This document shows positions 941-58,111 of a stretch of DNA of 64,000 bases, piece by piece. Every line of letters begins with the position of its first letter. The first letter of the stretch is position 1. Source of the stretch: Patescibacteria group bacterium (GTDB lineage Bacteria > Patescibacteriota > Kazan-3B-28). Under the pieces are notes generated by a model. It worked only from the letters and a program-made list of their open reading frames with translations. It was not told where the DNA came from and made no database searches. Where the stretch lies: assembly GCA_041649135.1 (NCBI GenBank), contig JBAZNQ010000001.1, positions 99,037-163,036 of the forward strand, in the 5' to 3' direction. The position numbers and the translations under genes are program-made.

Positions 941-1052
941 GCTAGGCGACAGACTATGTTCTCGCTGCCGATCCCAACCACCGAAAGTCGGTTCTGCGAG
1001 CTGGTTTTTGGCTTGTCATTGTGGCCATAGAACCAATAAGCTATGAACCCTC

Positions 1053-6629: not shown

Positions 6630-9600
6630 TTGCTAAATACACATACAGTCATGAGTAAATTGAAACAGGTAGCCACTCTTTTTTACTGGGTGACAGCTTT
6701 TGGCTTAGCGTTAGCGCCAATGCTAACCGCCACTCCAGCTTGGGCCACATATATTGATCCAACTGGCGGTCAACCAAGTGATATCGGCCCAGTGTGTAGT
6801 CCCGCTGTGGATTTGATCTCTAACGGCAGTTTCGAAGTGCCGGTAGTTGATAATGATTCCAACTGGGACATTTTCCCAAGCGACCCCAACAATGATTTAG
6901 GGAGTAACTTGTGGTGGGGCGCGGAATGGGTAGCCCCCGGCGAAGGTGCACCTAATTTTGCCAATCTTGAATTACAGAAAGCCCCGCTCAACGGCTGGTC
7001 TGCTCAAGCCGGCGATCAATGGGCAGAATTGGATACTGACTATGACGGCCCCGGTGGCAGCATCGGTGGCGAAGCCGCTTCCATCCGTCTGACCCAGAAT
7101 ATTAAAAACACCAAGGGAGGCTGTTATTATAATTTGGAATTTTATACTTTGCCTCGCCCCGGTTACGGTCCAGAAGATAATACTATCGAAGTCAGCTGGA
7201 ACGGTGTCGTAATCGATACAATTACTACAGATGGTTCGTCTCTTACTCAACCAGATTGGGCTTATCACCAATATACTGTTCAGGCCGATGATTTAACCGC
7301 CGATCTTTCCTTTACCGACATTGGCATTCCCAATTCCTTTGGGATGCTACTAGATAATGTTCAAATTCACTGCATCGAAGAAAAAACGACGATCGTTGCT
7401 CACAAAATTGTCTGTGATTCAGAAGAAGATTTGCCTAACTGGGGTATCGGTGGCGAACCAATTACTGCTACTACCGCCCAAGATTTTGTTACTTCCCGCC
7501 AAGGTAGATGTCATTTTCAGGCAGGCTGGCAGTTCCAATGGGCGCCAGAAGGTACTTCAAATCCCGGAGACACCATGATCGGAGAAGCGGGTGGTTGGAA
7601 CACCCTTCCCGCAACTGACGGAGATGGCAAGACAACGATTACTCTTACTGCCACCGACATTGCTGGTAGTAGCTATCTTTGGTTCCGTGAAGCCTTACTG
7701 GAAAACTATGTTCCGTTTAGTAGCTGGCTGTCTGATGGTTCGAACACTCCAAGTGCCGATGATGAATTTTCCGCTGAAGTTTATGCCACTACTGATGTAT
7801 TAAACTATGACAACTACGATCGGATCGAAGATGTTGAAAACGGTGGCATCAAGTTAGGTCAAACTTACTACGCCGTTGCGTTTAATGTTCTGGCCGAGCC
7901 AGAAGAAGATCCGTGTGATTTCGGCGAGCAGACCGGTTGGTTCGGCCAATACTATGATTACACCGCCAACCATCAGGACATGAACTTGCCGACTGGCGTC
8001 TGGCCAGACAAAACTCACGGTGATCCGTTGAGCAAGACTGCTACTTGGACGGCCGATTGGTATGATTCTGACTACTTTGTCAGAAGCCAAGTTGATCCTA
8101 GTCTTAATTTTGGGAACGATTTCTTCCCATTGGATAGTCCTGTACTCGTTGAAGACCCTGCTGGGAGCGGTCACAACTATCACTTCGGTGCGCATTGGAG
8201 CGGAAAGGTTACTGTTGGTACAGAAGGGGATTACAACTTTGCTCTCAAATCGGATGACGATGCTTGGGTTTATCTTGATGGCGAATTAATCAAAGACAAC
8301 TCTGGCATTCATCAGCCACAAGAGAATAATGGTTCGGCGCACATGACGGTCGGCACTCACATTGTCGATATCTTCTTCGCAGAACGGCATACGGTCCAGT
8401 CTTACATGGCATTTGCCTTTGAAAACCAAGACTTGCTGATTGTTCCATACAACGACGAGTGTCCCGTTCCAGTCCCGACCCTTTCGATCGATAAGACTGG
8501 CGTTTACGATCAGGCTGGTCAAATTGATTACACCATTACTTGGAGTGTTGAGGGTGAAGGCACACTCCATAACGTTACTATTACTGATGCTATTCCAGCT
8601 GGTACGACGTATGTGCCTAGTGATCCATCCGGTATCCCTGCCGCTGGAGTAGTAACTTGGATCTTGGGTGATAAAACCGCTCCAGATTCGGGTACCATTC
8701 ATCTAATTGTTTCAATCGATTCTTACGAACCATGGGCGGACAGTCACAGCGACTTTACCCAAGGTTTGCGCAAAGATAATACTCCAGTAGTTGAAGAAAG
8801 AAGCCACCCCGATAAAGCTCTGGGCGTAGCCGAAAACAATGACACAATTAATTTTGTTTCACTCGGCTTCGGCGGTAGTTTGGTGCTTCATTTCAACAAC
8901 TACATCTTAGACGGCGCTGGTGCTGATATCGCCGTTACCGAAACTAGCTATGGCGAGCCATCTGACACCAACTATCCGGAAAAAGTGGAAGTGTTTGCTT
9001 CCCAAACTGGTAATGGCACAGACTGGGTATCGCTTGGTAGGGGGATCCAAGACCAAGACTTCGATCTCAATGGCAGCGGTTTGGCTTGGGCTAGATATCT
9101 GAAATTGGTTGATGTCTCCAACAAGGCTGACGCTCATTTCCCAGCCGATGCCGATGGTTACGACATTGATGGGGTAGCGGCCTTACACTACGCGCCTGCC
9201 GAATGTTCAATTGATAATACCGTTCAAATGAGCGGCGATCCAGCATCAGATGATGTTCCGAAGATCGCTATGGTAGCAGTAGTTGATGACGGTCTAGTCC
9301 ACGCCAGCGATACCACTACTACCACTATTAGTGATATCTGTAATCCTCCCATCCCCGATGACCCAGAGGATACTCACACTCTGATTAGTGGAATGAAGTT
9401 CAACGACCATGATGGTGATGGTGATAAAGATGAAAATGATGGGGGACTGGCCGAATGGAAAATTTATGCCGCCCAATTAGCTGCTAGCTTTGAAGTCGAT
9501 TCACACGGCGATATTACTGGTACGCCAGTTGATTCACCAATTCTTGAGAACGGTGTGGAATATCTGATTCGTGTAAGCGATACCTTTAACGCTGGTGACT

Positions 9601-10658
9601 CCATTACCGCCGATGCTAAATATTCCATTCGCACCGGTAGTGAGTGGACTGATATAGTTGAAAACTACGTTGGATATGGTCCAGCCTTGCTTGATCTGCA
9701 GTTGGATGGCACATCTCCGAACTGGGGTAGTTACAGCCCAGCCCATATTTATTGGTATGCCATGACTGGTACAGGAGCGGCTGTTACATTCCAAATCTAT
9801 GACATTTTTGCTTCCAACAATGTTGGCACACTCGATGTCTCCCTGTATCGTGTCTTGGATTTCACTCTGACTGACGGAACTGGCAATTATTCATTTGATC
9901 TACTCAACGTCGAGGGTGATGTCATTATTGCCGAACAAAATCAAACTGGTTGGACCCAAACCGCTCCCGCTCCGGTTGACTACTATACTGTTCCATCTGG
10001 TGGAGAAGCTAGTAACCAAGATTTTGGTAACTACCAAATTCCAGCAGAGCCACGTCTTGGTTCGATCACTGGTATCAAATTCGAGGATCATGACGGTGAT
10101 GGCGTAAAAGACGGTAGTGATGATCAACCATTAGCCGGTTGGACTATCTACCTTGATGCCAATGACAATGGCAGTCTTGATAGCGGCGAATTGTCTGATG
10201 TAACTGATGATGCTGGTGTCTTTAGCTTCCCCAACCTCTCGGCTGGTACCTACATTGTTCGTGAAGTTTACCAAGATGGTTGGACCAAAACCTTCCCGAG
10301 TGCCTCGGCTTACAGCTTGATCATTGGAGATGGAGAGGGTAACGACTGGGATTGGATCGAGATCGATTTTGGTAACCATGAAGGCGTTGTCGACTCACAG
10401 GGCACAACTCCAACTGGTAGTTCAGGCAGTAGCAGCGGATATTACACTCCAGCGCCAACTCCTGATCCTGACGACGGAGATGTACTGGGCGAGCAAACTG
10501 GGAGCAACGGTAGTGGTAGCGGCGCTAGTGATGAAGCTGTCGGTGGCGAACAAACCCTGCCTGTTACTGGTACATCGCCATGGGTCATACCGGTAATGTT
10601 ACTATTAGCTCTTGCCGTACTACTAGTCGAATCTCGTTGGTCAAAACGTACAAATTAA
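6630..10658 (+). CDS. Giant LPXTG-anchored cell-surface protein (PA14 + DUF11 + SdrD-B/Cna-B-like repeats)
   Basis: Signal peptide. PA14-like segment (GDYNFALKSDDDAWVYLDGELI). DUF11-like (TLSIDKTGVYDQAGQIDYTITWSVEG...VTITDAIPAGTTYV). Two SdrD-B-like repeats (GxKFxDHDGDGxKD...LAGWxIY...G.Y.V.E). The C-terminus is LPVTG + hydrophobic stretch + SRWSKRTN, a classic sortase sorting signal. Confidence 0.85.
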   Translation: MLNTHTVMSKLKQVATLFYWVTAFGLALAPMLTATPAWATYIDPTGGQPSDIGPVCSPAVDLISNGSFEVPVVDNDSNWDIFPSDPNNDLGSNLWWGAEWVAPGEGAPNFANLELQKAPLNGWSAQAGDQWAELDTDYDGPGGSIGGEAASIRLTQNIKNTKGGCYYNLEFYTLPRPGYGPEDNTIEVSWNGVVIDTITTDGSSLTQPDWAYHQYTVQADDLTADLSFTDIGIPNSFGMLLDNVQIHCIEEKTTIVAHKIVCDSEEDLPNWGIGGEPITATTAQDFVTSRQGRCHFQAGWQFQWAPEGTSNPGDTMIGEAGGWNTLPATDGDGKTTITLTATDIAGSSYLWFREALLENYVPFSSWLSDGSNTPSADDEFSAEVYATTDVLNYDNYDRIEDVENGGIKLGQTYYAVAFNVLAEPEEDPCDFGEQTGWFGQYYDYTANHQDMNLPTGVWPDKTHGDPLSKTATWTADWYDSDYFVRSQVDPSLNFGNDFFPLDSPVLVEDPAGSGHNYHFGAHWSGKVTVGTEGDYNFALKSDDDAWVYLDGELIKDNSGIHQPQENNGSAHMTVGTHIVDIFFAERHTVQSYMAFAFENQDLLIVPYNDECPVPVPTLSIDKTGVYDQAGQIDYTITWSVEGEGTLHNVTITDAIPAGTTYVPSDPSGIPAAGVVTWILGDKTAPDSGTIHLIVSIDSYEPWADSHSDFTQGLRKDNTPVVEERSHPDKALGVAENNDTINFVSLGFGGSLVLHFNNYILDGAGADIAVTETSYGEPSDTNYPEKVEVFASQTGNGTDWVSLGRGIQDQDFDLNGSGLAWARYLKLVDVSNKADAHFPADADGYDIDGVAALHYAPAECSIDNTVQMSGDPASDDVPKIAMVAVVDDGLVHASDTTTTTISDICNPPIPDDPEDTHTLISGMKFNDHDGDGDKDENDGGLAEWKIYAAQLAASFEVDSHGDITGTPVDSPILENGVEYLIRVSDTFNAGDSITADAKYSIRTGSEWTDIVENYVGYGPALLDLQLDGTSPNWGSYSPAHIYWYAMTGTGAAVTFQIYDIFASNNVGTLDVSLYRVLDFTLTDGTGNYSFDLLNVEGDVIIAEQNQTGWTQTAPAPVDYYTVPSGGEASNQDFGNYQIPAEPRLGSITGIKFEDHDGDGVKDGSDDQPLAGWTIYLDANDNGSLDSGELSDVTDDAGVFSFPNLSAGTYIVREVYQDGWTKTFPSASAYSLIIGDGEGNDWDWIEIDFGNHEGVVDSQGTTPTGSSGSSSGYYTPAPTPDPDDGDVLGEQTGSNGSGSGASDEAVGGEQTLPVTGTSPWVIPVMLLLALAVLLVESRWSKRTN

Positions 10659-14552: not shown

Positions 14553-15224
14553 ATGAAACTCCTGGCCGCCATTAATGTTGTCCTGGAATTCCTCGGGGCC
14601 TTGATTGTCGCCAAACAAGACAAGGAAGGTCACTTTGCCCGTGTGAGAGAGTTGCTCACACAGCTCAAGACCCTCGACGAGGAAGCTCTTGGTAGACTGC
14701 TTCAACGGATGAACTATGTCCGTGTGATCCTGACCCAGAACACGCTCCTCCCTACCGCAGAAGCCATACAAAGGTTTATTCTGAGCCAAGTCATCCAGAT
14801 CATTGATTGCGATACCGAACTATTTATTCCTGATTACTGGGAGGTGGTCGAGCACCAGAAGGGTGGCAAGCTGGAGTGGAACCCAGAGAAGATTCAGCTC
14901 TATCTCTCGAACGCACAAAATGACAACAGTGACATCGAGGGCCACGAGCTCTGCCGTGAGCTGAAAGGCAAGCGGGTCTTAAACGATTGCGTCCTTGATT
15001 GGCTCATTGCCCATCCCGAGTTCATCCCCGAAGAATGGAAGGGTAAATATATCTTCTTCTGGGGTACCATCTATCGCGACTCGAGTGGCTACTTACGCGT
15101 GCGGTTCCTCTACTGGGACGGTGGCAGGTGGGGCAGGTGGGGCAGGTGGCGCTGGAACTATCGCCGGCTCGACGACAAATTGCACTCCAACGAACCTGCG
15201 GCTGTCCTCGCAGACGCAGCTTAG
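14553..15224 (+). CDS. Hypothetical protein in a higher-GC islet, C-terminal GRW repeats
   Basis: About 52% GC against about 44% flanks. SD aggagactggg before the ATG. C-terminus GGRWGRWGRWRW encoded by 3 perfect ggcaggtgg units. Confidence 0.45.
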   Translation: MKLLAAINVVLEFLGALIVAKQDKEGHFARVRELLTQLKTLDEEALGRLLQRMNYVRVILTQNTLLPTAEAIQRFILSQVIQIIDCDTELFIPDYWEVVEHQKGGKLEWNPEKIQLYLSNAQNDNSDIEGHELCRELKGKRVLNDCVLDWLIAHPEFIPEEWKGKYIFFWGTIYRDSSGYLRVRFLYWDGGRWGRWGRWRWNYRRLDDKLHSNEPAAVLADAA

Positions 15225-19494: not shown

Positions 19495-19696
19495 AGTGTG
19501 AACGGGCAGACGCCAAATGCCGCTGACGGTTAAACTATCAGCGGCATTTTTATACCCCAAACCGTTTTTTTGTCATCCTCGGGCTTGACCCGGGGATCCA
19601 GACAAAAACAACAAAAAAGCCCATTTTCAGAAGATTTTTTACTCTCTAAAATCACCTATAAACAGCCAAAAATCGGCTCTGGGAGCAGAAAAAGTG

Positions 19697-20202: not shown

Positions 20203-20745
20203 ATGGCCACCAAAACAGAAGAAGAGACAGTAGTAGTGGAGTGGGGGTTGGTGACTGGGTCACCAACCACCATTAAGCCCCGCATATTCGTGCGGGTGGC
20301 GAGCAACGGGAAGTCAGGGTTGTCGTCTCATTTTAGCGACGGAAGTCGTCCGACCCCCCCATCGGATTTGGGGAAGCGCCTCGAGCGCGTCGCGCGCGAG
20401 GTGCGAGGCCTTGGCCTCGGCGCCGAGGTCGTCGACGGCAAGGTTGTTGTCGACGGGCTGGTGTATCACAACACCATCCCCAACGGCCAAACGTTGGGGG
20501 TGGACGCTAGCGGACGACCCTACCTGACCGCCAACTCTCCCATAGTGGGAGAGCTGGCAGGACGGTTACTGCCGCCCTGCTCCGAGTGGGTAGAGCTAGG
20601 GGAAATTAGAGGAGCCTACTACGGCTCCGACGGTATGAGCATTGGCCAGCCCTTGCTACACACGGTCACCCTCTCCAACGGGGAGAGGGTATTGTTGGCT
20701 ATAGGAGGGGATATGGCCGACCTGACCATCTTCCCCCTTCCATAG
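20203..20745 (+). CDS. Hypothetical protein, strongly GC-rich (about 62%)
   Basis: Strong SD gggaggtggcgt-ATG; codon usage and GC differ sharply from the core genes. Confidence 0.5.
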   Translation: MATKTEEETVVVEWGLVTGSPTTIKPRIFVRVASNGKSGLSSHFSDGSRPTPPSDLGKRLERVAREVRGLGLGAEVVDGKVVVDGLVYHNTIPNGQTLGVDASGRPYLTANSPIVGELAGRLLPPCSEWVELGEIRGAYYGSDGMSIGQPLLHTVTLSNGERVLLAIGGDMADLTIFPLP

Positions 20746-23751: not shown

Positions 23752-24114
23752 ATGGACAACAGCTATTTACCGGGGATAGGAATTGCGACTGGGATGACAC
23801 TAGCGGCGTGGTTGTTAGTGTTATTTTATTTTGATCCAACCACTTCTGGCGTTCCCGGTATCACTTTATTTTTTATCAGTCTAGCGGCTACTTTAATAGG
23901 TATATTGATTTTAATTTTCAATTATCTCCGCTATCGTTTTGCCAAAACGCCCGCCTCATTTGGTGTTACCATCAGGCAGGCTGTCTTGTTAGGGCTGGCC
24001 GTCTCGGGTATCCTACTATTGTTGGCTCTGGACAAGCTAAATTGGTGGAACGGGGTCGCCATCGTAGTGGCTGGTATAGTTATTGAATCCTATGCGCTGA
24101 TCAAACCGGAATAA
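23752..24114 (+). CDS. Small membrane protein (3 TM), hypothetical
   Basis: 120 aa, hydrophobic; preceded by ctagata/ctagatg tandem repeats. Confidence 0.45.
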   Translation: MDNSYLPGIGIATGMTLAAWLLVLFYFDPTTSGVPGITLFFISLAATLIGILILIFNYLRYRFAKTPASFGVTIRQAVLLGLAVSGILLLLALDKLNWWNGVAIVVAGIVIESYALIKPE

Positions 24115-27852: not shown

Positions 27853-28473
27853 CTAGTCGCTAGGAAAGTACAAGTCCAACTGCGCCCAAACGCAGTCGCT
27901 GTCCCGAGCAACTAGTGACCAACCATAGTAGAGTTGCAGGTCAGCCTTGGTGCTGAAATGAAAGGTAATGGCCGGCCCCAAATTGCTACTGACTCGACTG
28001 TCGTCGGCAAACTCACCGGAGAACACACCGACAACGGACAAGGTTGCATCTTCTCCGGCCAACGCATCCCATTGTGCTTGCTCATAAAAAGAGGTCTTTT
28101 TGCCGTTGGCGAACCTGATGCTTGTCATGGCCCATCCAAAACGACCATCAACCTTTCCTTGGAGTTTAAGCCCAGTATCCTCGCCATCGCGGAACATCAG
28201 AATGACCCGGGGTTGGACTTTAAAGTCTTCCCCCCAGCTCACTTGTGGCAAACGCCAACCGATATCAACCCCGTCCATGTCGGGGCTCCAGTCGAATTGC
28301 CAAGACGCTTGACCATCTGGCACCACCAGTCGGAGGTTGTGACTTGTTCCTCCGTTCTCTGGCGAGATGTAAGTCAAGTCCTCCACGACAACCGTACCAG
28401 CCATCACCGGGCTGGCAATCGCCATACACAGCACTACTACCGCAACTGCGGCAGCCACTAACCATCGTGGCAT
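27853..28473 (-). CDS. Secreted hypothetical protein (higher GC, about 56%)
   Basis: SD aaggagg 7 nt before ATG (MPRWLVAAAVAVVVLCMAIASPVMAG signal peptide). The ORF extends to 28548, but the internal start is favoured. Confidence 0.5.
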   Translation of the reverse strand: MPRWLVAAAVAVVVLCMAIASPVMAGTVVVEDLTYISPENGGTSHNLRLVVPDGQASWQFDWSPDMDGVDIGWRLPQVSWGEDFKVQPRVILMFRDGEDTGLKLQGKVDGRFGWAMTSIRFANGKKTSFYEQAQWDALAGEDATLSVVGVFSGEFADDSRVSSNLGPAITFHFSTKADLQLYYGWSLVARDSDCVWAQLDLYFPSD

Positions 28474-28678
28474 TTCGCATTCCTCCTTCTTGTACTTCCT
28501 AGTGGTCAAAGGACATCCCCCAACCACCGTCGCATCGTACTCTGACAATCAGCTTCCAGTCAAGCTTTTTGGCTTCTCCCAAAACTTTGCTTTTAACGCC
28601 AAGCTAAGAGAATAATCCTAAAATCTAAATTTGAAAAACCCTCGGTCGATTTCGACCGAGGGTTTCATTGTGGTCGGC

Positions 28679-29125: not shown

Positions 29126-31174
29126 ATGCCTGACGACAATAAAAAAACTAGCGGTTCCTACGGTGCAAAAGATATTCAGGTCCTAGAAGGGCTTGAGCCA
29201 GTTCGCAAACGCCCCGGTATGTATATCGGCTCCACCTCGGTGGAGGGTCTTCACCATATGATTTGGGAGGTGGTCGATAACTCTATTGATGAAGCCATGG
29301 CCGGTCACGGCACGATGGTGGAAGTTATTATTCACAAAGACGGCAAGGTAACCGTGATTGATGATGGTCGCGGCATCCCAACCGAGATACATCCTCAAAC
29401 CAAGAAGTCCACCCTTGAAACTGTTTTAACCACTCTTCATGCCGGTGGTAAGTTCGGCGGCGAAGGTTACAAAGTTTCCGGTGGTTTACATGGTGTGGGC
29501 GTGTCAGTTGTCAACGCCCTGTCTGATTTTATGCGGGTAGAAGTAACCCGTGATGGCAAAACTCATGCCCAAGAATATTCCAAAGGTATCGCCACCAGTT
29601 CAGCCAAAGTGATCAACAAAGATGTCAAAGGACATGGTACAAAAATAACTTTTCATGCCGACAAAACCATCTTTGATGACAACGAAGGGTACGAATGGAA
29701 AACCGTTCTCGAACATTTGAAACAGCAAGCTTATCTCACCAAAGGCGTTTTTGTAAAAATTCACGATGAACGTTCGGGCGAATCGCAGGAATTCAAATTT
29801 GAAGGCGGAGTGCAGTCATATGTCGAAGATTTAGATAAAAACAAGACTCCGCTCTTCACTCCACCATTTTATATCGACAAAGAACGCAACAATGTCCAAG
29901 TTGAATTGTCGATTCAATACACGGAAGATTTTAATGAAACGCTCAAAGCTTTTGCTAATAATATTTACAATCCCGAAGGCGGAACTCACGTAATTGGTTT
30001 TCGTACCGCGTTAACTCGCATTTTAAATGCTTACGCTAAAAAAACGGGGATTATCAAAGAAGCGAAAGATGCTTTATCGGGCGACGATGTTCGCGAAGGT
30101 CTGACCGCCGTTATTTCTGTCAAACTGGCGAATCCCCAATTTGAAGGTCAGACTAAAGCCAAGTTGGGTAATGCCAATGTTCGGACTGCCGTCGATGCGG
30201 TAATGTCCGATTATTTCAATAACTACCTTGAGGAGCATCCTTCAGAAGCTCGTCGGATTATCAGTAAGACCATGTTGGCTGCCAGAGCCCGCCTAGCGGC
30301 GCGTCAGGCGCGTGAAACGGTACTGCGCAAAGGTATCCTCGAAGGTATGACCCTGCCGGGGAAACTAGCCGACTGTTCCAACCGAGATCCATCCAAATCA
30401 GAGATCTTCATTGTCGAGGGTGAGTCTGCCGGTGGTTCCGCCAAAAGTGGACGTGATCGTCAGTTCCAAGCTATTTTGCCTTTACGTGGGAAAATTTTGA
30501 ACGTAGAAAAAGCTCGGCTGGATCGCATGTTATCTTCCGAGGAAATTAAAGTTTTGATCATTGCCCTTGGTGCCGGTATTGCTGAACAATTCAATGTTGA
30601 TAAAATTCGTTACCATCGCGTAATTATTATGACTGATGCCGATGTTGATGGTGCGCACATTAGAACTTTGCTTTTGACTTTCTTCTACCGCTACATGCGC
30701 GCCATTATCGACCGCGGCTATCTCTATATTGGCCAGCCGCCACTGTATCAGCTTAAGTCTGGCAAAGATGTGCGCTGGGTTTATTCTGACGAAGAGAAGG
30801 ATAAAGTAATGAAAGACATGCAGGAAGCCGCTGCCAAGAAGAAGGAAGGCAAGAAAGCTAAGATGGAAACCGATGACACCGCCATCGTCATTCCCGCGGA
30901 GGCGGGAATCCAGACCGAAACAGAAACCATCGCCGAAGATTTGTCATCTACTAAAGGTATTGCGATCCAACGTTACAAAGGTCTTGGAGAAATGAATCCA
31001 AGCCAACTTTGGGAAACCACTATGGATCCTGCTAATCGGATTATTCACCGTGTTACTGTTGATGATGCCGAAATCGCTGATGACATCTTTTCCACCCTCA
31101 TGGGAGACGACGTTGCCCCCCGCAAGAAATTCATCGAAGATAACGCCCAATTCGTCCAGAATCTGGACGTGTAA
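29126..31174 (+). CDS. gyrB: DNA gyrase subunit B, carrying an in-frame repeat-derived insertion
   Basis: GHKL ATPase motifs (EVVDNSIDEA, GLHGVGVSVVNALS), TOPRIM (EGESAGGSAK, IMTDADVDGAHI), C-terminal QRYKGLGEMN. Codons VIPAEAGIQ at 30886-30913 are encoded by gtcattcccgcggaggcgggaatccag. Confidence 0.9.
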   Translation: MPDDNKKTSGSYGAKDIQVLEGLEPVRKRPGMYIGSTSVEGLHHMIWEVVDNSIDEAMAGHGTMVEVIIHKDGKVTVIDDGRGIPTEIHPQTKKSTLETVLTTLHAGGKFGGEGYKVSGGLHGVGVSVVNALSDFMRVEVTRDGKTHAQEYSKGIATSSAKVINKDVKGHGTKITFHADKTIFDDNEGYEWKTVLEHLKQQAYLTKGVFVKIHDERSGESQEFKFEGGVQSYVEDLDKNKTPLFTPPFYIDKERNNVQVELSIQYTEDFNETLKAFANNIYNPEGGTHVIGFRTALTRILNAYAKKTGIIKEAKDALSGDDVREGLTAVISVKLANPQFEGQTKAKLGNANVRTAVDAVMSDYFNNYLEEHPSEARRIISKTMLAARARLAARQARETVLRKGILEGMTLPGKLADCSNRDPSKSEIFIVEGESAGGSAKSGRDRQFQAILPLRGKILNVEKARLDRMLSSEEIKVLIIALGAGIAEQFNVDKIRYHRVIIMTDADVDGAHIRTLLLTFFYRYMRAIIDRGYLYIGQPPLYQLKSGKDVRWVYSDEEKDKVMKDMQEAAAKKKEGKKAKMETDDTAIVIPAEAGIQTETETIAEDLSSTKGIAIQRYKGLGEMNPSQLWETTMDPANRIIHRVTVDDAEIADDIFSTLMGDDVAPRKKFIEDNAQFVQNLDV

Positions 31175-43697: not shown

Positions 43698-43784
43698 TCT
43701 CCTTCGTTATTGCTTAATTGCTCAATTGGCGAATTGTCGAATTCCCATCTCTCTCCTCTCTATTCACCATTCACCATTCACCTT

Positions 43785-44582
43785 ATGTACACCTTACCCA
43801 ATCAACCACAACCTAATTGGTTCCAGCCGACTATGCCACCAGTTCGTTACCGCCGGCGAAATTGGTTTATTGAAGTATTGAAATTTTTGGGTTTGTTTAT
43901 TTTCTTTTTTGCTGGTCTCGTGCTGATCGTGATGGGCCCAACCTATTATGCTAAACTGGCGTATCTCTGGACCAAACCAACTAATAACTATTCACAAAAA
44001 TATGAATTGCCAGTTTCAGTAACCGACGATCCAGCGGCAATTGGAGATTTGACCGACCAAGTCAGTAAAAGTAAATCTGCCTTTGGTCAAGATACTATTG
44101 TGATCCCTAAAATCAACGTCGATGCGCCGCTACTTTATTTAGAAACTACGAACAACACAGACATTATCGAAGCCATTCAGAACGGTGTCGGTCATTATCA
44201 GGGGACCGCTCTCCCCGGTCAAAATGGCAATGTTTTCTTAACTGGTCACAGCTCTTATTACTGGTGGTCGGGCGGCAAATACAATCAAGTTTTTGCCTTA
44301 CTCAACAAACTCGAAGCAGGGGATTTGATCTACCTCTACTATCAGGGCAACAAATATATTTATCGAGTTAGCCAGAGCTTTGTTGTTAAACCAGAGCAAG
44401 TCGAAGTCCTGCAGGCCACTACTGAACCAATTTTAACTCTCATGACTTGCACTCCAGTTGGCACCAATCTTAAGCGTCTGATTGTTCGGGCAGACTTAAT
44501 TAGCCAACCACCAGTTAGTGGTAGTGACTTTTCTAACCTATTCAATTTGCCCAAGCCGCCAACCATCCTGCCGCTGTACTAG
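43785..44582 (+). CDS. Sortase (transpeptidase, membrane-anchored)
   Basis: N-terminal TM, LTGHSSYYW (His), LTLMTCTP (TLxTC Cys), RLIVRAD (Arg); start at the ATG 43785 directly after the ttcaccattcaccattcacctt motif (ORF from 43710). Confidence 0.8.
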   Translation: MYTLPNQPQPNWFQPTMPPVRYRRRNWFIEVLKFLGLFIFFFAGLVLIVMGPTYYAKLAYLWTKPTNNYSQKYELPVSVTDDPAAIGDLTDQVSKSKSAFGQDTIVIPKINVDAPLLYLETTNNTDIIEAIQNGVGHYQGTALPGQNGNVFLTGHSSYYWWSGGKYNQVFALLNKLEAGDLIYLYYQGNKYIYRVSQSFVVKPEQVEVLQATTEPILTLMTCTPVGTNLKRLIVRADLISQPPVSGSDFSNLFNLPKPPTILPLY

Positions 44583-44716: not shown

Positions 44717-46147
44717 CTAGATACTGACTGTACTAGATACTAGATACTGTCCAAGCCCGCCAAAGATATTGGAATCATTCTGACGCAAAATTAGTTCAAC
44801 CAATTTGTTGGCTTTTAACAGCCAGATTTTTTTCGCATCACTTCCAAGGTAAACTGTAGTTTTGTTAACATCAGCTACTGTATAAACATTTGTTCCGCTA
44901 ACGTCGCTAACGTTAAGTTGATTATTAGTAGTTAAAAACAAGCTTTCATCTTGTTTGCCTAGCAATTCAACTGCGGCGGGGAAATTTTTTAGTGTCATTT
45001 CAGTTTGATTAACGAAATTATGGCTCATTAAATTCCGACCAACCGTATAAAACAATCTTGGTTTCAAATTATGATGTTCGTAGTAAACGTCACCGATATT
45101 GCTAGCTACTTTTGTCCAAATCGGAACTTCGTTTTTTCCAACAACAGTTTTATCCCACAACCACAACCCCGCTGTGCTGTTTTTAGCCGTTACGATAATT
45201 CTCTCGTCATTCACAAAGACGATTTCGTAGCTTTTTCCGACCGGCAAATCGTTAGTTACCGCTTCTCCCGCTTTGTCATCAAACAAATTACTGTCTCGCA
45301 TCAGCGAAATACTTCCGTTACTGTTACGAATAATGTAGTACAACCGACTATTACTATAAGACGCCCCTAAAATATTTTTAGCGTAAAGGTTTATTCGGTT
45401 GAGATTCAGATCAACTGCATATACTGTCGTCCCCATTACTGCCATTAGTCGATCATTGTCTAACCAGCTTAATTTTTCTGCCGTTGCTTGATTCAGGGGG
45501 CTACCAAATAACTGCCCTCGATAACCTTCTTGAAAATCGGCTACCACTAACCATTTTCTTCCCCCTGAAATCACTCCCAACGCCCAAGTATTGCCATCCG
45601 ACTTTTTGGCCAAATACACGTCAGTCGTTGCCTGCAACACACTTTTTACATTGGCTGGTAATCGGCTAAAGTCCAGCGGCGTCGCTGTACCGTTAGCGTA
45701 TTTGATAAATTTTCGGTCTTTCGAAAAATATAATAAATCGTTTCCCACGCTAATTACTCGCTGGGCATCCTCTACCAAAATTTGACTCGGAATATCGGTC
45801 AGCACCAAATCCAAGTTGTGTTCTTCTACCACTTGTCTTGATGCCACGTCTATGGTTTTAAAAAACGGCCGATAATCCTTCAGCTCCAATTTGATATTAT
45901 ATGCCCCCGGCAGAACATTGCGCATTGTAATTGGGGTCAGCCGGGAGGTTTTATGATCATTAATGTATACCGTTGCTCCGCTTGGTTTACTGCTGATTGC
46001 CAACACACCAGTCTTCTGGATCGTCCAAGTCGCCAAATCCAGCCGATAGCCGGTCGCGTATCCTATGGCATAGACTGCCACCACGATGAAAACCAACGTG
46101 GACAGCACATAAGCCAGCAGTGTCGGCCAATTTTTCTGATAGGTCAT
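44717..46147 (-). CDS. Membrane-anchored PEGA-domain protein with beta-rich C-terminal region
   Basis: N-terminal TM; PEGA-like SSKPSGATVYINDHKTSRLTPITMRNVLPGAYNIKLELKDYRPF. Confidence 0.55.
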   Translation of the reverse strand: MTYQKNWPTLLAYVLSTLVFIVVAVYAIGYATGYRLDLATWTIQKTGVLAISSKPSGATVYINDHKTSRLTPITMRNVLPGAYNIKLELKDYRPFFKTIDVASRQVVEEHNLDLVLTDIPSQILVEDAQRVISVGNDLLYFSKDRKFIKYANGTATPLDFSRLPANVKSVLQATTDVYLAKKSDGNTWALGVISGGRKWLVVADFQEGYRGQLFGSPLNQATAEKLSWLDNDRLMAVMGTTVYAVDLNLNRINLYAKNILGASYSNSRLYYIIRNSNGSISLMRDSNLFDDKAGEAVTNDLPVGKSYEIVFVNDERIIVTAKNSTAGLWLWDKTVVGKNEVPIWTKVASNIGDVYYEHHNLKPRLFYTVGRNLMSHNFVNQTEMTLKNFPAAVELLGKQDESLFLTTNNQLNVSDVSGTNVYTVADVNKTTVYLGSDAKKIWLLKANKLVELILRQNDSNIFGGLGQYLVSSTVSI

Positions 46148-48816: not shown

Positions 48817-48867
48817 CTCAACGAGCGAAGGATGGAACCAGAGGATCCAGTCCCACCCTTTGTTATT

Positions 48868-49040
48868 CTCGGACTTGATCCGAGAATCCAGAAAAGAACA
48901 GAAAAAATGTTTTTGTTTCTGGCTGGATTCCCCAATCAAGTTGGGAAATGACAACAGAAACTTAAGAATAACCAAAAGTCCACCGTCATTCTGGTAAGGT
49001 CGACGCAGCGACCGCATCCAGAATCGTATAAGTGACGATG
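48868..49040. repeat. Two adjacent MITE-like elements
   Basis: ctcggacttgatccgagaatccagaaaagaacagaaaaaatgtttttgtttctggctggattcccc...gggaaatgac followed by gtcattctggtaaggtcgacgcagcgaccgcatccagaatcgtat. Confidence 0.75.
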
Positions 49041-50916: not shown

Positions 50917-52233
50917 ATGAGAGAGAAAGTTAGAGTTAGATTTGCTCCAAGCCCGACTGGACCATTACATATTGGGAGTGCGCGTACCGCGCTCTTCAAT
51001 TATCTGTACGCTAAAAAATTTAACGGTGTTTTTGTCTTACGTTTTGAAGACACGGATACCGCTCGCAGTCAAAAAGTCTTTGAAGAGAACATTTTAGGGG
51101 GTTTAGCGTGGTTGGGGTTTGTGACTGATGAAACTTATCATCAAAGCGAACGCGAAAAAGTGTATCGCTCGTATTTACAAAAATTGACCGATAGGGGACT
51201 TACTTATGAACATGATGGGGGAGTCTATTTCAAATTACCAACCGACAATCGAAAGGTCATTGTTGATGACATTATTCGCGGCCAAGTGGAATTTGAAAGT
51301 AAAGATTTTGACGATCTAGTTTTATTTAAAAAGGATGGCTCACCGACCTTTCATTTTGCCAATGTTGTAGATGATATTGAAATGAAAATTACTCACGTTA
51401 TTCGTGGCGAAGATCATTTGAGCAACACTCCAAAACATATTTTGCTTTATGAGGCACTAGATGCTACACCACCCCAATTTGCCCACATCCCGCTGATCCT
51501 AAATCCAGATCGCACCAAGATGAGTAAACGTGCCGGTAACGTCAATTTGGACGACTACAAACAAGCCGGATATCTACCCGAAGCCTTAATTAACTTTCTT
51601 GTTCAACTTGGCTGGTCTGACCCCTCTTCTTCTGTCATTCCCGCGAAGGCGGGAATCTATTCCCTAGACGAACTAATCAAACTTTTTGATTTGTCTCGCG
51701 TCCAAAAAGCCGGAGCAGTTTTCGACATAAAACATCTCAATCACCTGAACCACTATTACCTGATGCAAAAACCTCTAGACGAATACACCGCACTAGCTAC
51801 TTCTCGTCTCTCGCAACTCGCAACTCGCAACTCGCGACTTCTTCGTTCCGCCCTGCGTCTGGTTCAAGACCGCGCCCAAACTCTGGGTGAAATCCCCTCT
51901 TTAATTGAATTTTTCTTCACCCAACCGGAATATGACTCTCCCCTGCTGGTTTTCAAAAAATCCAGTCCCGAACAAACTATGACAGGGTTGAAAACCGCTT
52001 TGAAGGTTTTAGAAGCCATCAGCGAGACAGAGTGGGCCCAACCAAAGTTACAACAAATCTTAGACGAGGCGACAGCAGCCGAATCACTTCAGCCGGGGGA
52101 TTTGTTCTGGCCGGTAAGAGTAGCTTTATCTGGTCGCGATGCCAGCCCCAGCCCGACTGAATTGTTAGACGCCCTTGGAAAAACCGAATCTATCGCAAGG
52201 ATCAAAACCGCTATTAATAAGTTGGGCAATTAA
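50917..52233 (+). CDS. gltX: Glutamate--tRNA ligase, carrying an in-frame repeat-derived insertion
   Basis: HIGH motif PTGPLHIGSAR, KMSKR. Codons SVIPAKAGIY at 51644-51667 are encoded by gtcattcccgcgaaggcgggaatc. Confidence 0.9.
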   Translation: MREKVRVRFAPSPTGPLHIGSARTALFNYLYAKKFNGVFVLRFEDTDTARSQKVFEENILGGLAWLGFVTDETYHQSEREKVYRSYLQKLTDRGLTYEHDGGVYFKLPTDNRKVIVDDIIRGQVEFESKDFDDLVLFKKDGSPTFHFANVVDDIEMKITHVIRGEDHLSNTPKHILLYEALDATPPQFAHIPLILNPDRTKMSKRAGNVNLDDYKQAGYLPEALINFLVQLGWSDPSSSVIPAKAGIYSLDELIKLFDLSRVQKAGAVFDIKHLNHLNHYYLMQKPLDEYTALATSRLSQLATRNSRLLRSALRLVQDRAQTLGEIPSLIEFFFTQPEYDSPLLVFKKSSPEQTMTGLKTALKVLEAISETEWAQPKLQQILDEATAAESLQPGDLFWPVRVALSGRDASPSPTELLDALGKTESIARIKTAINKLGN

Positions 52234-53469: not shown

Positions 53470-53612
53470 CGTCATCCTCGAGCCGAGTGCCGTAGGCAAC
53501 TCGACATCGGGGATCCAGAAAAAACAAAACATTTGGTTTCCCGACGAACAGAGGGACCACCCATTTCCCTTTCTCGTCATTCTGGCTTGTCCAGAATCTT
53601 ATAAAGCGATAC
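53470..53612. repeat. Two MITE-like elements (one partial)
   Basis: gtcatcctcgagccgagtgccgtaggcaactcgacatcggggatccagaaaaaacaaaac ... cgtcattctggcttgtccagaatcttat. Confidence 0.7.
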
Positions 53613-53630: not shown

Positions 53631-53704
53631 TGGGGTGTAGCCAAGTGGTAAGGCAACGGGTTCTGGTCCCGTGATCCCTGGTCCGAATCCAGGCACCCCA
53701 GCCA
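53631..53704 (+). tRNA. tRNA-Gln (anticodon CTG)
   Basis: Acceptor TGGGGTG/CACCCCA (U1-A72 as in many Gln tRNAs), D-arm gccAAGTGGTAAggc, anticodon loop TTCTGGT, T-arm cctggTCCGAATccagg, G discriminator + CCA. Confidence 0.8.
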
Positions 53705-53893
53705 AGTAGAATATTACTCAATTATCTCCTTAGAAATTTATAAACCCATTAAGACCCGAGTGGGTTATTTAGTTTTACTCCTTACAACCAACCGAAACCG
53801 TGTTGTCTCACCAGTATAAAAAAATGCCCCACCGAGTGTGATACTCGGCGGGGCTTGGGGCAATTCCTGTGGAATTGCTAGTAAGCATGGAGC

Positions 53894-55375
53894 CTACGGG
53901 AGAGGTACGTCAGGATAACGGAAGAACTGCTCGCCTGAGATGACCATGCCGGCCAATACTTCGCTGGTGACTTCCCAGTTCCATCCACCAGTCGTGCTGG
54001 TAACATTACCACGGAACTGGCTACGAACTGCTCCGGCGTCGCCGTTGCCGTCCAAGTCGATGTCAGTATCGAACAAGATGTCCTTACCGACTCGGCTGTT
54101 GAACCACTCAAGCTGTCCGTCCATGGGGCCGAACAGGGTAGGATCGCTTCCCGAGAAGTCATTCTGATCTGCGAATCCAAGACCAGTCAAACCATAGGCG
54201 CCGTACTGCGAATCGTCATAGAGGCGACCGCCCTCTTCATAACCAAAGTATCCATAGCTACGGTGACGGAAGGAATTATCCTTCATCTCGTCCAGGGCTT
54301 CGGCGTAGAGATTGTCGGCTTCGGTGGTGAGGGTGGCGTAGTTCTGCACTTCTGAGAGACCAGCAGGCAGGAAGCACCAACCCAAATCGGTGTAATCCCA
54401 GGTTCCCAGAGGGATGCCTTCCCATTCTGAGCGACGAGCCACCAGCTCCTGGATCATGCCATCGTCTTCGTCGGTGACAGCATCAAACAGGGCAGTTAGG
54501 CCGACATCGGTACCGGAATCGTAGTCAGCGAATTCGTTGAAGCCAGTGAGTGCCGCCGCCCAGATATAGGCCGTGGAATCCCACAAGGCCAAACTGTTGC
54601 GAGCGTCCACCATGCGGGTGGCATACTCAGCACCAGTGAATTCGTCGGCGATCTCTGCGAACCAGGTCTCCGCCATGTACTGGTAGTTCGAGTTGTTGAA
54701 CACGTTTGCAGACCGGCTTAACAGGATAACATCCCAAGCGTAGGGACGATCAGCACTGGTGCTGGCGTCCGTGTCGCTGGCTGCCATAGAAGTGGCGTAG
54801 GCGTCGCCCAAGAAGCCGGTGGGGCTCAAGAACTCTGCCAGATCGTCCAAAACGTCAGCGTTGATAGGCGTCTTCGTGGAGTCGCTCGGGTCGTAGAGAT
54901 CGTAGAGCTCTACGTACTGAAGTAGCCCCATCCAGATAACAGACTGAACATTGCGCTGTGCAGTCGTGCCACCAGATTCCCATGTGAACACGTGGGGCCA
55001 ACCACCAAAGACGTTCGTACTCTCCTGCAGATATAGCAGGTAAGCGATGCCGTTGGCTGTGGCTTCGATGGCCTCGCGGTCTTCATTCGTCAGGGCCGAC
55101 AGATCCTTGTTGCCACTAGTGAAGTCGTTGAGGTCGATGAGCATCTGGATCTCAGCAATCTGGCCGTCGCCCATCTCGCCGGTCCCATCACGGGTAGGCG
55201 ACGGGTAGTAGTTCGTCACCGTGACAAATCGTGCGTCACCGGTATCAGGCGTGATGTCCGGGATGTCGATGTTCACGTCGGGTGACATCGGATCCGAGGT
55301 TACGCTGTTGCTGCCGCCACAGGAAACTACGAATGCCATCAAGATGGCAATGATAATAAACAAACTATAACGCAT
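53894..55375 (-). CDS. Lipoprotein, hypothetical (GC-rich island gene)
   Basis: Lipobox AFVVSCGGS, 493 aa acidic Asp/Thr/Gly-rich protein; about 56% GC; located just downstream of tRNA-Gln. Confidence 0.55.
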   Translation of the reverse strand: MRYSLFIIIAILMAFVVSCGGSNSVTSDPMSPDVNIDIPDITPDTGDARFVTVTNYYPSPTRDGTGEMGDGQIAEIQMLIDLNDFTSGNKDLSALTNEDREAIEATANGIAYLLYLQESTNVFGGWPHVFTWESGGTTAQRNVQSVIWMGLLQYVELYDLYDPSDSTKTPINADVLDDLAEFLSPTGFLGDAYATSMAASDTDASTSADRPYAWDVILLSRSANVFNNSNYQYMAETWFAEIADEFTGAEYATRMVDARNSLALWDSTAYIWAAALTGFNEFADYDSGTDVGLTALFDAVTDEDDGMIQELVARRSEWEGIPLGTWDYTDLGWCFLPAGLSEVQNYATLTTEADNLYAEALDEMKDNSFRHRSYGYFGYEEGGRLYDDSQYGAYGLTGLGFADQNDFSGSDPTLFGPMDGQLEWFNSRVGKDILFDTDIDLDGNGDAGAVRSQFRGNVTSTTGGWNWEVTSEVLAGMVISGEQFFRYPDVPLP

Positions 55376-55407
55376 GGTATCCTCCTAAGGATACGAACAA
55401 TGTAGTG

Positions 55408-55917
55408 TTATCGCGTCGAGACACGATAGTATAGTTTGAATGGGAAGGCATTACCTTCCACGTCCAACGCTTGCCATTCGATTTTAAGAACCGACGGCAA
55501 ACTGGTTGCGCTGTCGACCTTCAACTTCCAGAAATTGATATCTGGATGAGAGTAGGTCTGATCCTGCCAAACACTTACCAGCGTGGCTGAAGTGTTGATA
55601 ACCAAACCGCCCGAAGACAATTGTTCTGCATGGTGAATGTAGGCCAAAGGAGTTCCTTCAGCTTTTGGAACAGGTAAAACATAGGTCGTACCTGTCACAA
55701 CCACTGATCCTCCGTCAACCCATGTTTCTGTCGCCCAGAGACTAGTTTCAGCGGGGATAACCCGTGACGAGCCATCGTAACCGAAATAAAGTTCCCTGGC
55801 CACCATGTTGATAGGGTCCGGTGGGTCAGGATTGTTGACAACTGAGTTACTATCACAGCCACTGGCTACTAGCAATATTGTCATTGCTAAAGCCAAAACG
55901 GCTTGTCCAAGTCGCAA
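55408..55917 (-). CDS. Lipoprotein, hypothetical (GC-rich island gene)
   Basis: Lipobox LLVASGC; 169 aa; co-directional with and upstream of the 493-aa lipoprotein gene. Confidence 0.5.
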   Translation of the reverse strand: MRLGQAVLALAMTILLVASGCDSNSVVNNPDPPDPINMVARELYFGYDGSSRVIPAETSLWATETWVDGGSVVVTGTTYVLPVPKAEGTPLAYIHHAEQLSSGGLVINTSATLVSVWQDQTYSHPDINFWKLKVDSATSLPSVLKIEWQALDVEGNAFPFKLYYRVSTR

Positions 55918-56347
55918 TATATATCCTCCTAGATTGTCAATTTACGATACAGAGAACGCCATATCTTAATGGCGGATTAGGTATATACAATGCCTACCCA
56001 ACCAAAGCATTGTATAGCAGAGAATCTTTTTGTCAATAGTTTATTGGGATTTCGGTATTTCAAGACTATTTTTCCAATAGTTCGATATGCAAGCGTAGAT
56101 AGAGTCACAAAACTCTCTCAAAATCCATCGTGACTTCTTGCCACTGTCTCATTTGTCTCATTTTCTCCTATAATGACCTATAATTATTCGTAGTGGCGCA
56201 AACAGCTAAAAACCACCCCAATTTTACTCCTTGGGAACCACCGAGACTAAGCTGTTCAGCCAGCAAGGGCACGAGTCAAGCGACCCGTGTGCCCAGTTGA
56301 GTCGTAATTACTCGGCCTAGTAGGGTATGTTAAAATGGGAATAGCTA

Positions 56348-57067
56348 ATGAACTATGTAGCTGTAGTAGAACCAATAGCGCCAAGTGTCGCCAAAATATT
56401 CACTCTCAACAAGGGCGTGGTTTCTGGAACTGGCTCTGGCTTCTTGTTCTCAAAAGCTGGCATCATGGTTACTTGCGATCATGTGGTAGGTGGTAGCGAA
56501 ACTTTAGTCTGTCGGTTTTCGGATGAAGATAAATTCTACACCGCCAAGCTAGTTGTTCGCGACCAAGAACATGATTTGGCTCTCTTGAAGGTAGAAGATG
56601 CAGAAGCTCGTCCAGTTCTCGCTGAAGGAGAACAAGATGAAATAAAGGCCGGTATGTCAGTTCTTTTCTCTGGTTATCCCCTCAACCTCGAAACACTAAC
56701 TACTCATCAGGGAATTCTCTCGTCAATTACTACGGATGCGGTTGGCATAACCACTTATTTAATAGATGGCACAGTTAATTCCGGTAATAGTGGGTGCCCT
56801 TTAATGGATAACAAGGGAAGAGTGATAGGTGTTGTGAACGCTAAGCGTCAAGAGCGCGCTGATCTTCTTAATAAAGTAGAAAGGATGGCCCTTGGCGCCG
56901 TTGCGATTCATGGGGTAGACTTAGTAGAAATCTATCAAGCTCTCATATCAAATGTACAGCTTGGCATTGGATATGCCGTTCCCGCCTCGTATATTCCCGA
57001 ACATAAAGAGTTAGCTGAAGGGCAGCTCCCTATCATAACTCCCCAGTCAACTGATAAAGATAAGTAG
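56348..57067 (+). CDS. Trypsin-like (S1) serine peptidase, no PDZ
   Basis: Catalytic triad context: MVTCDHVVGG (His), HDLALLKV (Asp), GNSGCPLMDNKGRVIGV (Ser). Confidence 0.7.
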   Translation: MNYVAVVEPIAPSVAKIFTLNKGVVSGTGSGFLFSKAGIMVTCDHVVGGSETLVCRFSDEDKFYTAKLVVRDQEHDLALLKVEDAEARPVLAEGEQDEIKAGMSVLFSGYPLNLETLTTHQGILSSITTDAVGITTYLIDGTVNSGNSGCPLMDNKGRVIGVVNAKRQERADLLNKVERMALGAVAIHGVDLVEIYQALISNVQLGIGYAVPASYIPEHKELAEGQLPIITPQSTDKDK

Positions 57068-57079
57068 ATTAAGACAACC

Positions 57080-57370
57080 ATGAACCCAATTTTTAAATCC
57101 AACGGTATATACATAGGCTTTATTATTAGCAATCTTCTCTATTCTAGAGACGGAGAGTACTTGGGTTGGGTTGAAGATAATTTTGTGTGGGATTCTCGAG
57201 GACGGTTCAGGGGTAGAATTTGGAATGATAAATACGTCATCTCTAACAAATTTGCGGTTGCGCCAATACCTCGTGTACCTCGCCCTATCCCGCCAGTACC
57301 TACATTACCGACTCCACCAGCCAATATCACACCCGTACTACTGCCGACTGGTTGGGACGATGCTTTTTAA
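57080..57370 (+). CDS. Hypothetical protein with Pro-rich C-terminus
   Basis: 96 aa; 13 nt after the peptidase stop. Confidence 0.35.
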   Translation: MNPIFKSNGIYIGFIISNLLYSRDGEYLGWVEDNFVWDSRGRFRGRIWNDKYVISNKFAVAPIPRVPRPIPPVPTLPTPPANITPVLLPTGWDDAF

Positions 57371-57462
57371 AGATTTTTTTGATTCTCCAGTAAAATAGTC
57401 AGCTTAATAAAAAGGACATCCACCTAAGATGTCCTTTTAAAGTTGCAAATACTGATTTCAAA

Positions 57463-57828
57463 TCAGTATCCCTTACGAGCTTCTGGAGCGATATGCCAGA
57501 GTAGCCGTAGGCAAGAATAAGTGATCAGCCATGCCCACCACAAAAACCCAACCGGCTCAATTTTGAAAAGACCACAAACCAATGCTCCAATAACCCACGC
57601 CGGTATTATGCTGAACAGACTGATAAACATCTCGCCAATTGCCAACAGTATCGCTCCTAGTCCAGCACCGCGACTTAAGTCTGCGATTAGACCTAGTCCG
57701 GTCACTATACTGAAAATCCACCAGAAGATATCTCCTGGGTTTCCAAAGAGCCAGGTATTATCCATCGGCGCGCCCCTTTTGTTAAAGTCAGCCCAGTATG
57801 GCTCGTTAAATTGTCCTCCGTCAAGCAA
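57463..57828 (-). CDS. Hypothetical membrane protein
   Basis: 121 aa, 3 TM helices. Confidence 0.35.
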   Translation of the reverse strand: MLDGGQFNEPYWADFNKRGAPMDNTWLFGNPGDIFWWIFSIVTGLGLIADLSRGAGLGAILLAIGEMFISLFSIIPAWVIGALVCGLFKIEPVGFLWWAWLITYSCLRLLWHIAPEARKGY

Positions 57829-58111
57829 AGGTTTAATTTTTCATTTCAGTTGGGAAATAGCCTACCAACCTCCTTTTTCCCTTGACACACTCACCAATTT
57901 GTGTCATACTCCCCAAGTACTGATGAAAGGGCATTGCGACCTCTTGAACGGGGTCGTATTTTATTACTCGATCAGATACCTCTGTAATGGTTTAGATGAT
58001 AGAGCTTTGATTGAGTCCTCCTAAGCGTTATCTATATCAGAAGAGACAAATAACCTGTTTCTGATGAGATAAAGCGAAGGATGGACCCACATATTTCAAC
58101 AAAGCAAAATA

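Follow-up and report, generated by a model that had tools for sequence, protein, structure and literature searches.

A Predicted Lipoprotein Gene Pair in a tRNA-Gln-Flanked Variable Interval of a Patescibacteria Genome

We analysed a stretch of 64,000 nucleotides (nt) from a Patescibacteria group bacterium (GenBank assembly GCA_041649135.1, contig JBAZNQ010000001.1, positions 99,037 to 163,036; hereafter the window), in which two genes for predicted lipoproteins lie just past a tRNA gene. The latter, a tRNA-Gln(CTG) at 53631-53704 on the forward strand, was identified by ARAGORN and by Rfam (60 bits) and was the sole match in an Rfam scan over 52-59 kb. It forms the left edge of a variable interval of ~4.2 kb (53705 to ~57870), which reaches to the conserved promoter and leader of a DEAD-box helicase gene and holds five genes, encoding the two lipoproteins, a Trypsin_2 protease, a beta-flower protein and a small hydrophobic protein. 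The two lipoprotein genes are co-directional and lie on the strand opposite to the tRNA, as an earlier note made from the sequence alone had described: a small gene at 55917-55408 (169 residues; TTG start with an AGGAGG ribosome-binding site) and, 32 nt away, a large gene of 1,482 nt at 55375-53894 (493 residues). Because a promoter-like site on the same strand (56009-56036; TTGACA-16-TACAAT, matching at 11 of 12 positions) and a hairpin resembling an intrinsic terminator (53826-53854, reverse strand; 12 pairs, nine of them G-C, then a T-run) bracket both genes, we regard them as a single transcription unit. This operon is flanked by a 26-nt imperfect direct repeat, here named the TTTTACTCCTT repeat, with forward-strand copies at 53773-53798 and 56222-56247 that match at 20 of 26 positions.

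Both predicted proteins begin with a basic residue, a hydrophobic stretch and a lipobox cysteine, and the lipoboxes proposed in the earlier note are read in the translations: the large protein has the signal peptide MRYSLFIIIAILMAFVVS-C with the lipobox region ...AFVVSCGG (VVSC), and the small protein ends its signal in ...TILLVASG-C (ASGC). The cysteine is kept in all large homologues of ~500 residues for which the N-terminus is present, and in four of four full-length small homologues. Also borne out is the description of the larger protein as acidic and rich in Asp, Gly and Thr; its isoelectric point is 4.05, it has 79 Asp plus Glu against 22 Lys plus Arg, and its commonest residues are D (10.3%), A and G (9.1% each), L and T (8.1%). 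The statement that it carries no placeable motif held as well: neither lipoprotein has a Pfam match or a significant NCBIfam match, and at E<=1 the large protein has no Pfam, NCBIfam or PDB sequence match.

The fold of the large protein was predicted with AlphaFold2. An alignment of five close homologues only gave a predicted local distance difference test score (pLDDT) of 30; adding 25 distant relatives (30 sequences) brought the pLDDT to 80, with a predicted template-modelling (TM) score of 0.76. In this model a signal helix is followed by a low-confidence segment (residues 19-98) and an all-helical barrel (~100-486), with 12-13 helices in all. Foldseek comparison with the PDB gave as best matches GH76 mannanases, GH88/GH105 hydrolases, a polysaccharide lyase and AGE epimerases; the top 30 were almost all six-hairpin (alpha/alpha)6 enzymes, and class II terpene cyclases ranked lower. 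These matches are at fold level only (E ~1e-3, TM 0.4-0.6, root-mean-square deviation 7-9 A, 10-12% identity). The body of this predicted lipoprotein is one (alpha/alpha)6 toroid in the model, and the family to which it belongs is rare and unannotated.

The close family (A1) aligns with secreted relatives of ~350 residues (A6) at an hhalign probability of 99.8% (E 1e-28), and the A6 profile in turn matches squalene-hopene cyclase at 1e-17. Pfam searches of distant members yielded weak, sub-threshold matches, all of them to alpha/alpha-toroid families. The family is evidently a distant relative of squalene-hopene-cyclase-type repeat proteins, as judged from these alignments. The general-acid DxDD motif of the cyclase (374-DVDD-377) aligns with D-v-Q-t in the family consensus and is replaced by D388-S-Q-Y in the window protein, so that the large protein is not a cyclase. 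Residues conserved in the family comprise W132, N142, R210, D215, R259, D266, W318, D327/Y328, D388/Q390 and E468/E472, several of which stand at the start of alternate helices or immediately ahead of it, as on the functional face of such barrels. A DxDxDG loop, D438-I-D-L-D-G443-N-G-D446, lies between helices 412-434 and 467-486; the five closest sequences agree without exception at D438, D440, D442, G443 and D446, and most members of the lipoprotein subfamily have the loop.

Homologues of the large protein are scarce. Searches retrieved four matches in 5.8 billion clusters and 28 representatives in 1.84 billion proteins, eight of these at E<=1e-10, and a second word-indexed search with the 30-sequence alignment added one further fragment only. 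Wherever upstream DNA is present (contigs L002, L001/L003, L005, L006 and L009), a homologue of the small gene lies 25-34 nt upstream of the large gene, and a sixth, short contig (L007) contains the 3' end of a small homologue, as read by eye. The surroundings of the pair are different each time: it follows gyrA in L002, lies between an AI-2E transporter gene and uvrB in L001/L003, a Patescibacteria metagenome-assembled genome (MAG), and precedes a Band_7 gene in L009; ARAGORN found no tRNA in L001 or L002. The small and large genes are, on these arrangements, a conserved unit that recurs in at least five unrelated genomic contexts besides that of the window. The earlier note had suggested looking for a best match in a host lineage, for example an actinobacterial one; none was found, and two homologue contigs have an organism named in their records, in both cases a Patescibacteria MAG, as is the genome of the window itself. 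As a separate observation, a homologue of the large lipoprotein in contig L004 (27-1520; 43% identity) has as neighbours a histidine kinase gene and one without annotation that looks like aspartate carbamoyltransferase, with GC contents of 66-68% and third-position GC contents (GC3) of 0.88-0.93; either a transfer outside the Patescibacteria or a chimeric contig would account for it.

The pair also bears signs of recombination. Between the window and L002 the large proteins are 79% identical and the small ones 44%, with nonsynonymous divergence (dN) of 0.16 versus 0.63; in other genome pairs the small and large proteins have diverged about equally (47/54, 40/43 and 26/28% identity). The unequal divergence from L002 points to an exchange of one gene of the pair. 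The TTTTACTCCTT repeat is likewise unusual within the window, where its 11-mer core occurs twice against 0.07 expected; when the two intergenic regions were shuffled, one shuffle in 1000 reached a match of 20/26. Two independent public assemblies have contigs that end at 56189 and begin at 56261, on either side of the right copy. Nothing comparable to the flanking repeat was found around the pairs of L002, L003 and L009.

Relatives for comparison of the whole locus were found by exact search with the 3' 45 nt of the tRNA (two metagenome contigs) and by look-ups of the helicase gene. An identical (100%) tRNA-Gln(CTG) follows the same GT4 gene in L010, L011 and L012; gltX precedes in L011 and L012, and wecG also in L012, and these upstream proteins are 76-80% identical to those of the window. 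Nucleotide similarity of all three relatives ends at window positions 53708-53713, 4-9 bases past the 3' end of the tRNA. The most complete comparison is with L012, a 690-kb contig in which wecG-gltX-GT4-tRNA-Gln is followed by 6.3 kb of unrelated genes (a 191-residue protein, NUDIX, MFS, an S66 peptidase and small open reading frames, ORFs) before collinearity resumes at DEAD-typA, with a helicase 80% and a TypA 95% identical to those of the window. MFS and NUDIX genes after the tRNA are common to L011 and L012 and absent from the window, and L011 and L012 differ from each other in gene order past the tRNA. None of the five proteins of the interval has a tblastn match in L010-L016, in which the flanking gltX, GT4, DEAD and typA products match at 76-95%. 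On the right, alignment with L012, L014 and L016 places the start of the conserved helicase promoter and leader near 57876.

From these comparisons the interval 53705 to ~57870 is lineage-specific, and the shared flanks, the break at the tRNA end and the differing contents together mark it as a probable replacement hotspot. The supposition that a tRNA 3' end followed by foreign DNA denotes an integrated element was in this respect half right: the DNA past the tRNA is indeed peculiar to the lineage, but neither an integrase nor a repeat of the tRNA end accompanies it. The extent proposed for the block, 2.2 kb, was too small by half, since the variable interval includes three further genes of ordinary composition.

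We consider it probable, if far from assured, that the two lipoprotein genes form a self-contained operon that sits as a cassette in a Patescibacteria gene-replacement hotspot running from tRNA-Gln(CTG) to the DEAD-box helicase and typA genes, and that this accessory surface module was acquired by recombination rather than through a tRNA-targeting integrase. Several observations weigh against this account. The relatives used for synteny are only ~75-80% identical to the window in their core proteins, so that the apparent replacement may reflect no more than the usual decay of synteny, with no hotspot involved. L016, which has the closest helicase (88%), differs upstream, where cysS-tRNA-Gln(TTG) is found. 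An exact-sequence look-up of the Trypsin_2 neighbour returned only the arrangement seen here and a truncated contig, with no variant of this genome that lacks the cassette. The 26-nt repeat was picked after the fact, so that its test is post hoc; its 11-mer core also occurs once in L014, beside a Trypsin_2 gene, and the repeat, instead of being a scar of insertion, may be a regulatory motif. The small protein has no PDB profile match and no detectable relatives outside the pair, and the fold-level matches of the modelled large protein cannot decide between an enzyme and a binding protein.

Most of the surface proteins of Patescibacteria, bacteria that live attached to other cells, are still uncharacterised. 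Both proteins of the pair would be exported, receive a lipid at the cysteine of the lipobox and so remain anchored on the outside of the cytoplasmic membrane, where the Pro/Asp/Thr/Gly-rich, low-confidence N-terminal segment of the large protein may serve as a flexible tether that keeps the toroid off the membrane. The conserved residues W132, N142, R210, D215, D327/Y328, D388/Q390 and E468/E472, with R259, D266 and W318, could form a pocket at one mouth of the barrel. Such a pocket would bind, and possibly cleave, an extracellular ligand; an acidic glycan is favoured because of the arginines, carboxylates and tryptophans together with the glycosidase-like fold. The DxDxDG loop is a likely Ca2+ site, and calcium would then stabilise it; the small lipoprotein would be the co-functioning partner of the large one. 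A bolder extension, which we put forward as speculation and think unlikely, is that the pair represents a new kind of Patescibacteria surface complex: a calcium-stabilised, lipid-anchored toroid receptor or enzyme with its partner, mediating contact with the host cell or blocking phage adsorption, spreading between lineages as a cassette that runs from promoter to terminator and enters accessory hotspots through recombination at short repeats, and having the codon composition of its large gene fixed independently of the host, whether by selection specific to that gene or by GC-biased conversion that accompanies frequent recombination.

That codon composition is the only real oddity of the locus. 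The earlier note had described a block of 2.2 kb at about 56% GC; the peak exists, but it is confined to the 1,482 nt of the large gene (55.6%), the small gene being at 48.0%, the stretch 53631-55950 overall at 52.5% and the 64-kb window at 45.9%. Of the 1,482-nt segments of the 64 kb, the one over the large gene is highest in GC (0.562 versus a mean of 0.458, standard deviation 0.025, or ~4 standard deviations). The excess lies in GC3, at 0.67 against a mean of 0.466 (standard deviation 0.076) for 47 ORFs of the window; GC1 and GC2 are ordinary, and because the excess is confined to third codon positions, amino-acid composition is ruled out as its source. The other four genes of the interval have GC3 of 0.37-0.48, so that within the interval the profile proposed as a check singles out the large gene and leaves the small one at background. 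Third positions of the large gene are enriched in C (0.25 to 0.43) and poor in A (0.23 to 0.10) relative to background. TTC, ATC, AAC, TAC and GAC dominate, CAG and AAG are used exclusively (14/14 and 4/4), CGT and CGC are favoured for Arg, GCG, GGG and CGG are depleted, and AGA and ATA are avoided.

The same signature recurs throughout the family. Large-gene homologues in L002, L003, L006, L007 and L009 have GC3 of 0.64-0.73, C at 0.37-0.47 and A at 0.09-0.13 of third positions; their small partners range over GC3 0.48-0.63, and these partners and the flanking genes mostly fall below the large gene. In L004 the relation is reversed, the homologue (GC3 0.74) lying below its flanks. In all, GC3 is 0.64-0.74 in every large-gene homologue found, while the flanking genes of the hosts span 0.33 to 0.93. 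The GC-richness of the large gene is a third-codon-position trait of the gene family, kept in every host, and the use of composition as a sign of foreignness, made in the earlier note, did not survive this comparison. A codon composition that is independent of the host could stem from synonymous selection specific to this gene, from biased conversion of a gene that recombines, or from repeated transfer out of one donor pool. Three orphan ORFs of the window that lack a Pfam match also have high GC3 (14553-15224, 0.67; 20203-20745, 0.71; 27853-28548, 0.60), the first two of which resemble the large lipoprotein gene in having third positions rich in C and poor in A; after the maximum at that gene, GC in the window peaks next at 19.35-21 kb.

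One version of selection, that the large protein is a very abundant surface lipoprotein with codons optimised for translation (NNC, CGT, GGC/GGT, CAG, AAG), is an alternative that we hold to be rather unlikely, while giving it some weight. Its attractions are the C-ending codons for Phe, Ile, Asn, Tyr and Asp, the CGT/CGC preference for Arg, the avoidance of GGG, CGG, AGA and ATA, and the conservation of the pattern across the family. Genes expected to carry such a bias do not: the ribosomal S16 gene of L003, our ribosomal codon reference, has a GC3 of 0.46 versus 0.68 for the large gene of the same genome, and housekeeping genes of the window (gyrB, pheST, typA, pyrG) lie at 0.42-0.46. The small gene, on the same transcript, is unbiased, and the large gene of L004 is less GC3-rich than its flanks. 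The ORF at 23752-24114, a candidate rplT considered for the codon reference, had no Pfam support and was dropped.

The classic explanation for such a site, an integrase-mediated island or prophage remnant at the 3' end of tRNA-Gln whose integrase and far attachment site have since been lost, is in our judgement distinctly unlikely. It would explain why similarity to three relatives breaks off within a few bases of the tRNA end. In L010 a gene of 137 residues for an HTH_17/MerR (excisionase-like) protein (561-974, reverse strand) stands directly after the same tRNA, which hints that mobile DNA does use the tRNA-Gln site; L014 has retroelement genes in the equivalent interval, and the Trypsin_2 neighbour in the window is similar to proteases of defence islands. 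Against these stand the contents of the locus itself. Pfam, PADLOC and PHROGs scans found no integrase or other recombinase among the five genes of 53705-57870, in agreement with the absence of a visible integrase remarked on earlier. The 25-nt 3' end of the tRNA has no second copy in the 64 kb at up to 3 mismatches, including the 55.95-56.3 kb region where a direct repeat had been proposed, and no repeat families involving 53680-53704 were found. The repeat that does flank the operon starts 69 nt past the tRNA and is not derived from it. Searches of viral contigs and of phage and plasmid records gave no match to the large protein, and scans of both lipoproteins against PHROG families and PADLOC defence models found no hit.

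Ordinary erosion of synteny between distant relatives, with the lipoproteins as old resident genes, strikes us as a doubtful account too. It gains from the modest identity of the relatives and the missing cassette-free variant described above, and from the fact that L011 and L012 also disagree in gene order past the tRNA. It fares poorly with the comparison to L012, in which both flanks are collinear and the interior is wholly different; with the changed context of the pair in every genome that carries it; with the extreme sparseness of the family; and with the unique direct repeat around the operon.

Least probable is a recent import of the large gene from a GC-richer donor, such as the host of the episymbiont, with a composition that has not yet drifted: the GC3 of 0.67 against a background of 0.47 at the GC peak of the window, the L004 homologue among GC-rich genes and the unusual similarity of the window and L002 large genes would suit it, but the GC3 of the co-transcribed small gene, whose divergence keeps pace with that of the large gene in most genome pairs, is host-like, the shift is non-uniform (GCG, GGG and CGG depleted, CGT enriched), no homologue comes from a named organism outside the Patescibacteria, and homologues of 28-54% identity, a distance at which the synonymous sites of a donor could not have been retained, keep the same GC3 and the C-rich, A-poor pattern amid flanks of widely differing GC3, so that such an import appears unlikely. 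The GC anomaly marks a gene family with its own codon signature and not a recent arrival; composition alone would have mis-sized the island and misread its origin.

The same interval holds a second module. A Trypsin_2 serine protease gene (56348-57067, forward strand; Pfam 1e-23) encodes a domain resembling PADLOC defence proteases (RT-Protease_XI, 1e-24; LmuA, 2e-11; also HamA models). Starting 12 nt past it, a gene for a protein of 96 residues (57080-57370, forward strand; Pfam PF21784, 2e-10) has the 4-fold beta-flower fold described in PMC10584680. These two genes (56348-57370) may constitute a small conflict module. The last gene of the interval (57463-57828, reverse strand; 100 residues at 57463-57765 in the public record) encodes a small, hydrophobic, membrane-like protein without a family. 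The right edge is formed by the conserved helicase promoter and leader hairpin (57876-57965, forward strand; alignment and folding), with a TTGACA... promoter and a hairpin GCGACCUC-loop-GGGGUCGU followed by a U-run; the z-score of this fold is only -1.6, and the hairpin has no Rfam match.

Other variants of the interval were seen in the relatives. Upstream of DEAD-typA, L014 (4283-6785), and L015 likewise, contain bAvd, an RVT_1 reverse transcriptase and a Trypsin_2 protein of 304 residues, an arrangement that looks like a diversity-generating retroelement. In L016 the tRNA-Gln(TTG), a different isoacceptor (3499-3573), stands ~215 nt ahead of DEAD-typA, and the space between them holds no accessory genes.

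The window also contains two families of palindromes. The element GTCATTCCCGCGAAGGCGGGAAT occurs in eight copies against 0 expected (15528, 25307, 25485 on the reverse strand, 29018, 30887, 39464, 39810 on the reverse strand, and 51634). Two of these are in frame within essential genes, gltX (51634-51656, ..SVIPAKAGIY..) and gyrB (30887-30909, ..VIPAEAGIQ..); the gltX of L011 is without the insertion. A second, related intergenic family, GTCATCCTCG...GGGGATCCAG(A/C)A, is found at 19572-19601, 48862-48891, 48923-48952 (reverse strand) and 53471-53520, so that one copy lies between the GT4 and tRNA-Gln genes, and short matches occur in L010. Further surface machinery of the window includes a protein of 1342 residues with PA14, DUF11 and SdrD_B domains (6630-10658), a sortase (43710-44582) and a PEGA-domain protein (44717-46147).

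Through this analysis a rare, unannotated family of lipoprotein pairs is defined and its large member given a confident predicted fold, and the pair is seen as one that probably acts as an exchangeable cassette in a tRNA-flanked variable locus; none of these results overturns current understanding. The large protein has well-studied structural counterparts in GH76 alpha-1,6-mannanases, GH88/GH105 unsaturated glucuronyl and rhamnogalacturonyl hydrolases, and AGE-type epimerases, which are single (alpha/alpha)6 barrels of similar size and whose active-site face likewise has polar and aromatic residues at alternate helix starts; it differs from them in having no Pfam match, a predicted lipid anchor and the additional DxDxDG loop. 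Its homology to squalene-hopene cyclase (SQHop_cyclase_N/C) is detectable through the distant secreted relatives, but the cyclase has two domains and the large protein a single toroid, with neither DxDD nor an SQHop_cyclase Pfam match; it is predicted to be extracellular and anchored as a lipoprotein, without the membrane-dipping features of the cyclase, and QW-type repeats are seen only in the distant relatives. A further counterpart is the secreted toroid family of ~350 residues (P0011-P0030), which has the motifs WEW, N.QG, DRPY, R.SLAGWD, DWE and DYT in common with the large protein over residues 120-399, yet has plain signal peptides in place of lipoboxes, keeps the cyclase-type Q..DGSW repeats and lacks the DxDxDG loop. 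As for the locus, tRNA-adjacent genomic islands offer the nearest parallel. They differ in their integrases, tRNA-derived direct repeats and mobility genes, none of which is found here, where one gene in five is compositionally odd and the repeat beside the cassette has another origin than the tRNA. In both, the accessory block starts within a few bases of a tRNA 3' end and is set between conserved core genes, with content that differs from one relative to the next, and the locus is of an ordinary kind, a tRNA-flanked accessory hotspot.

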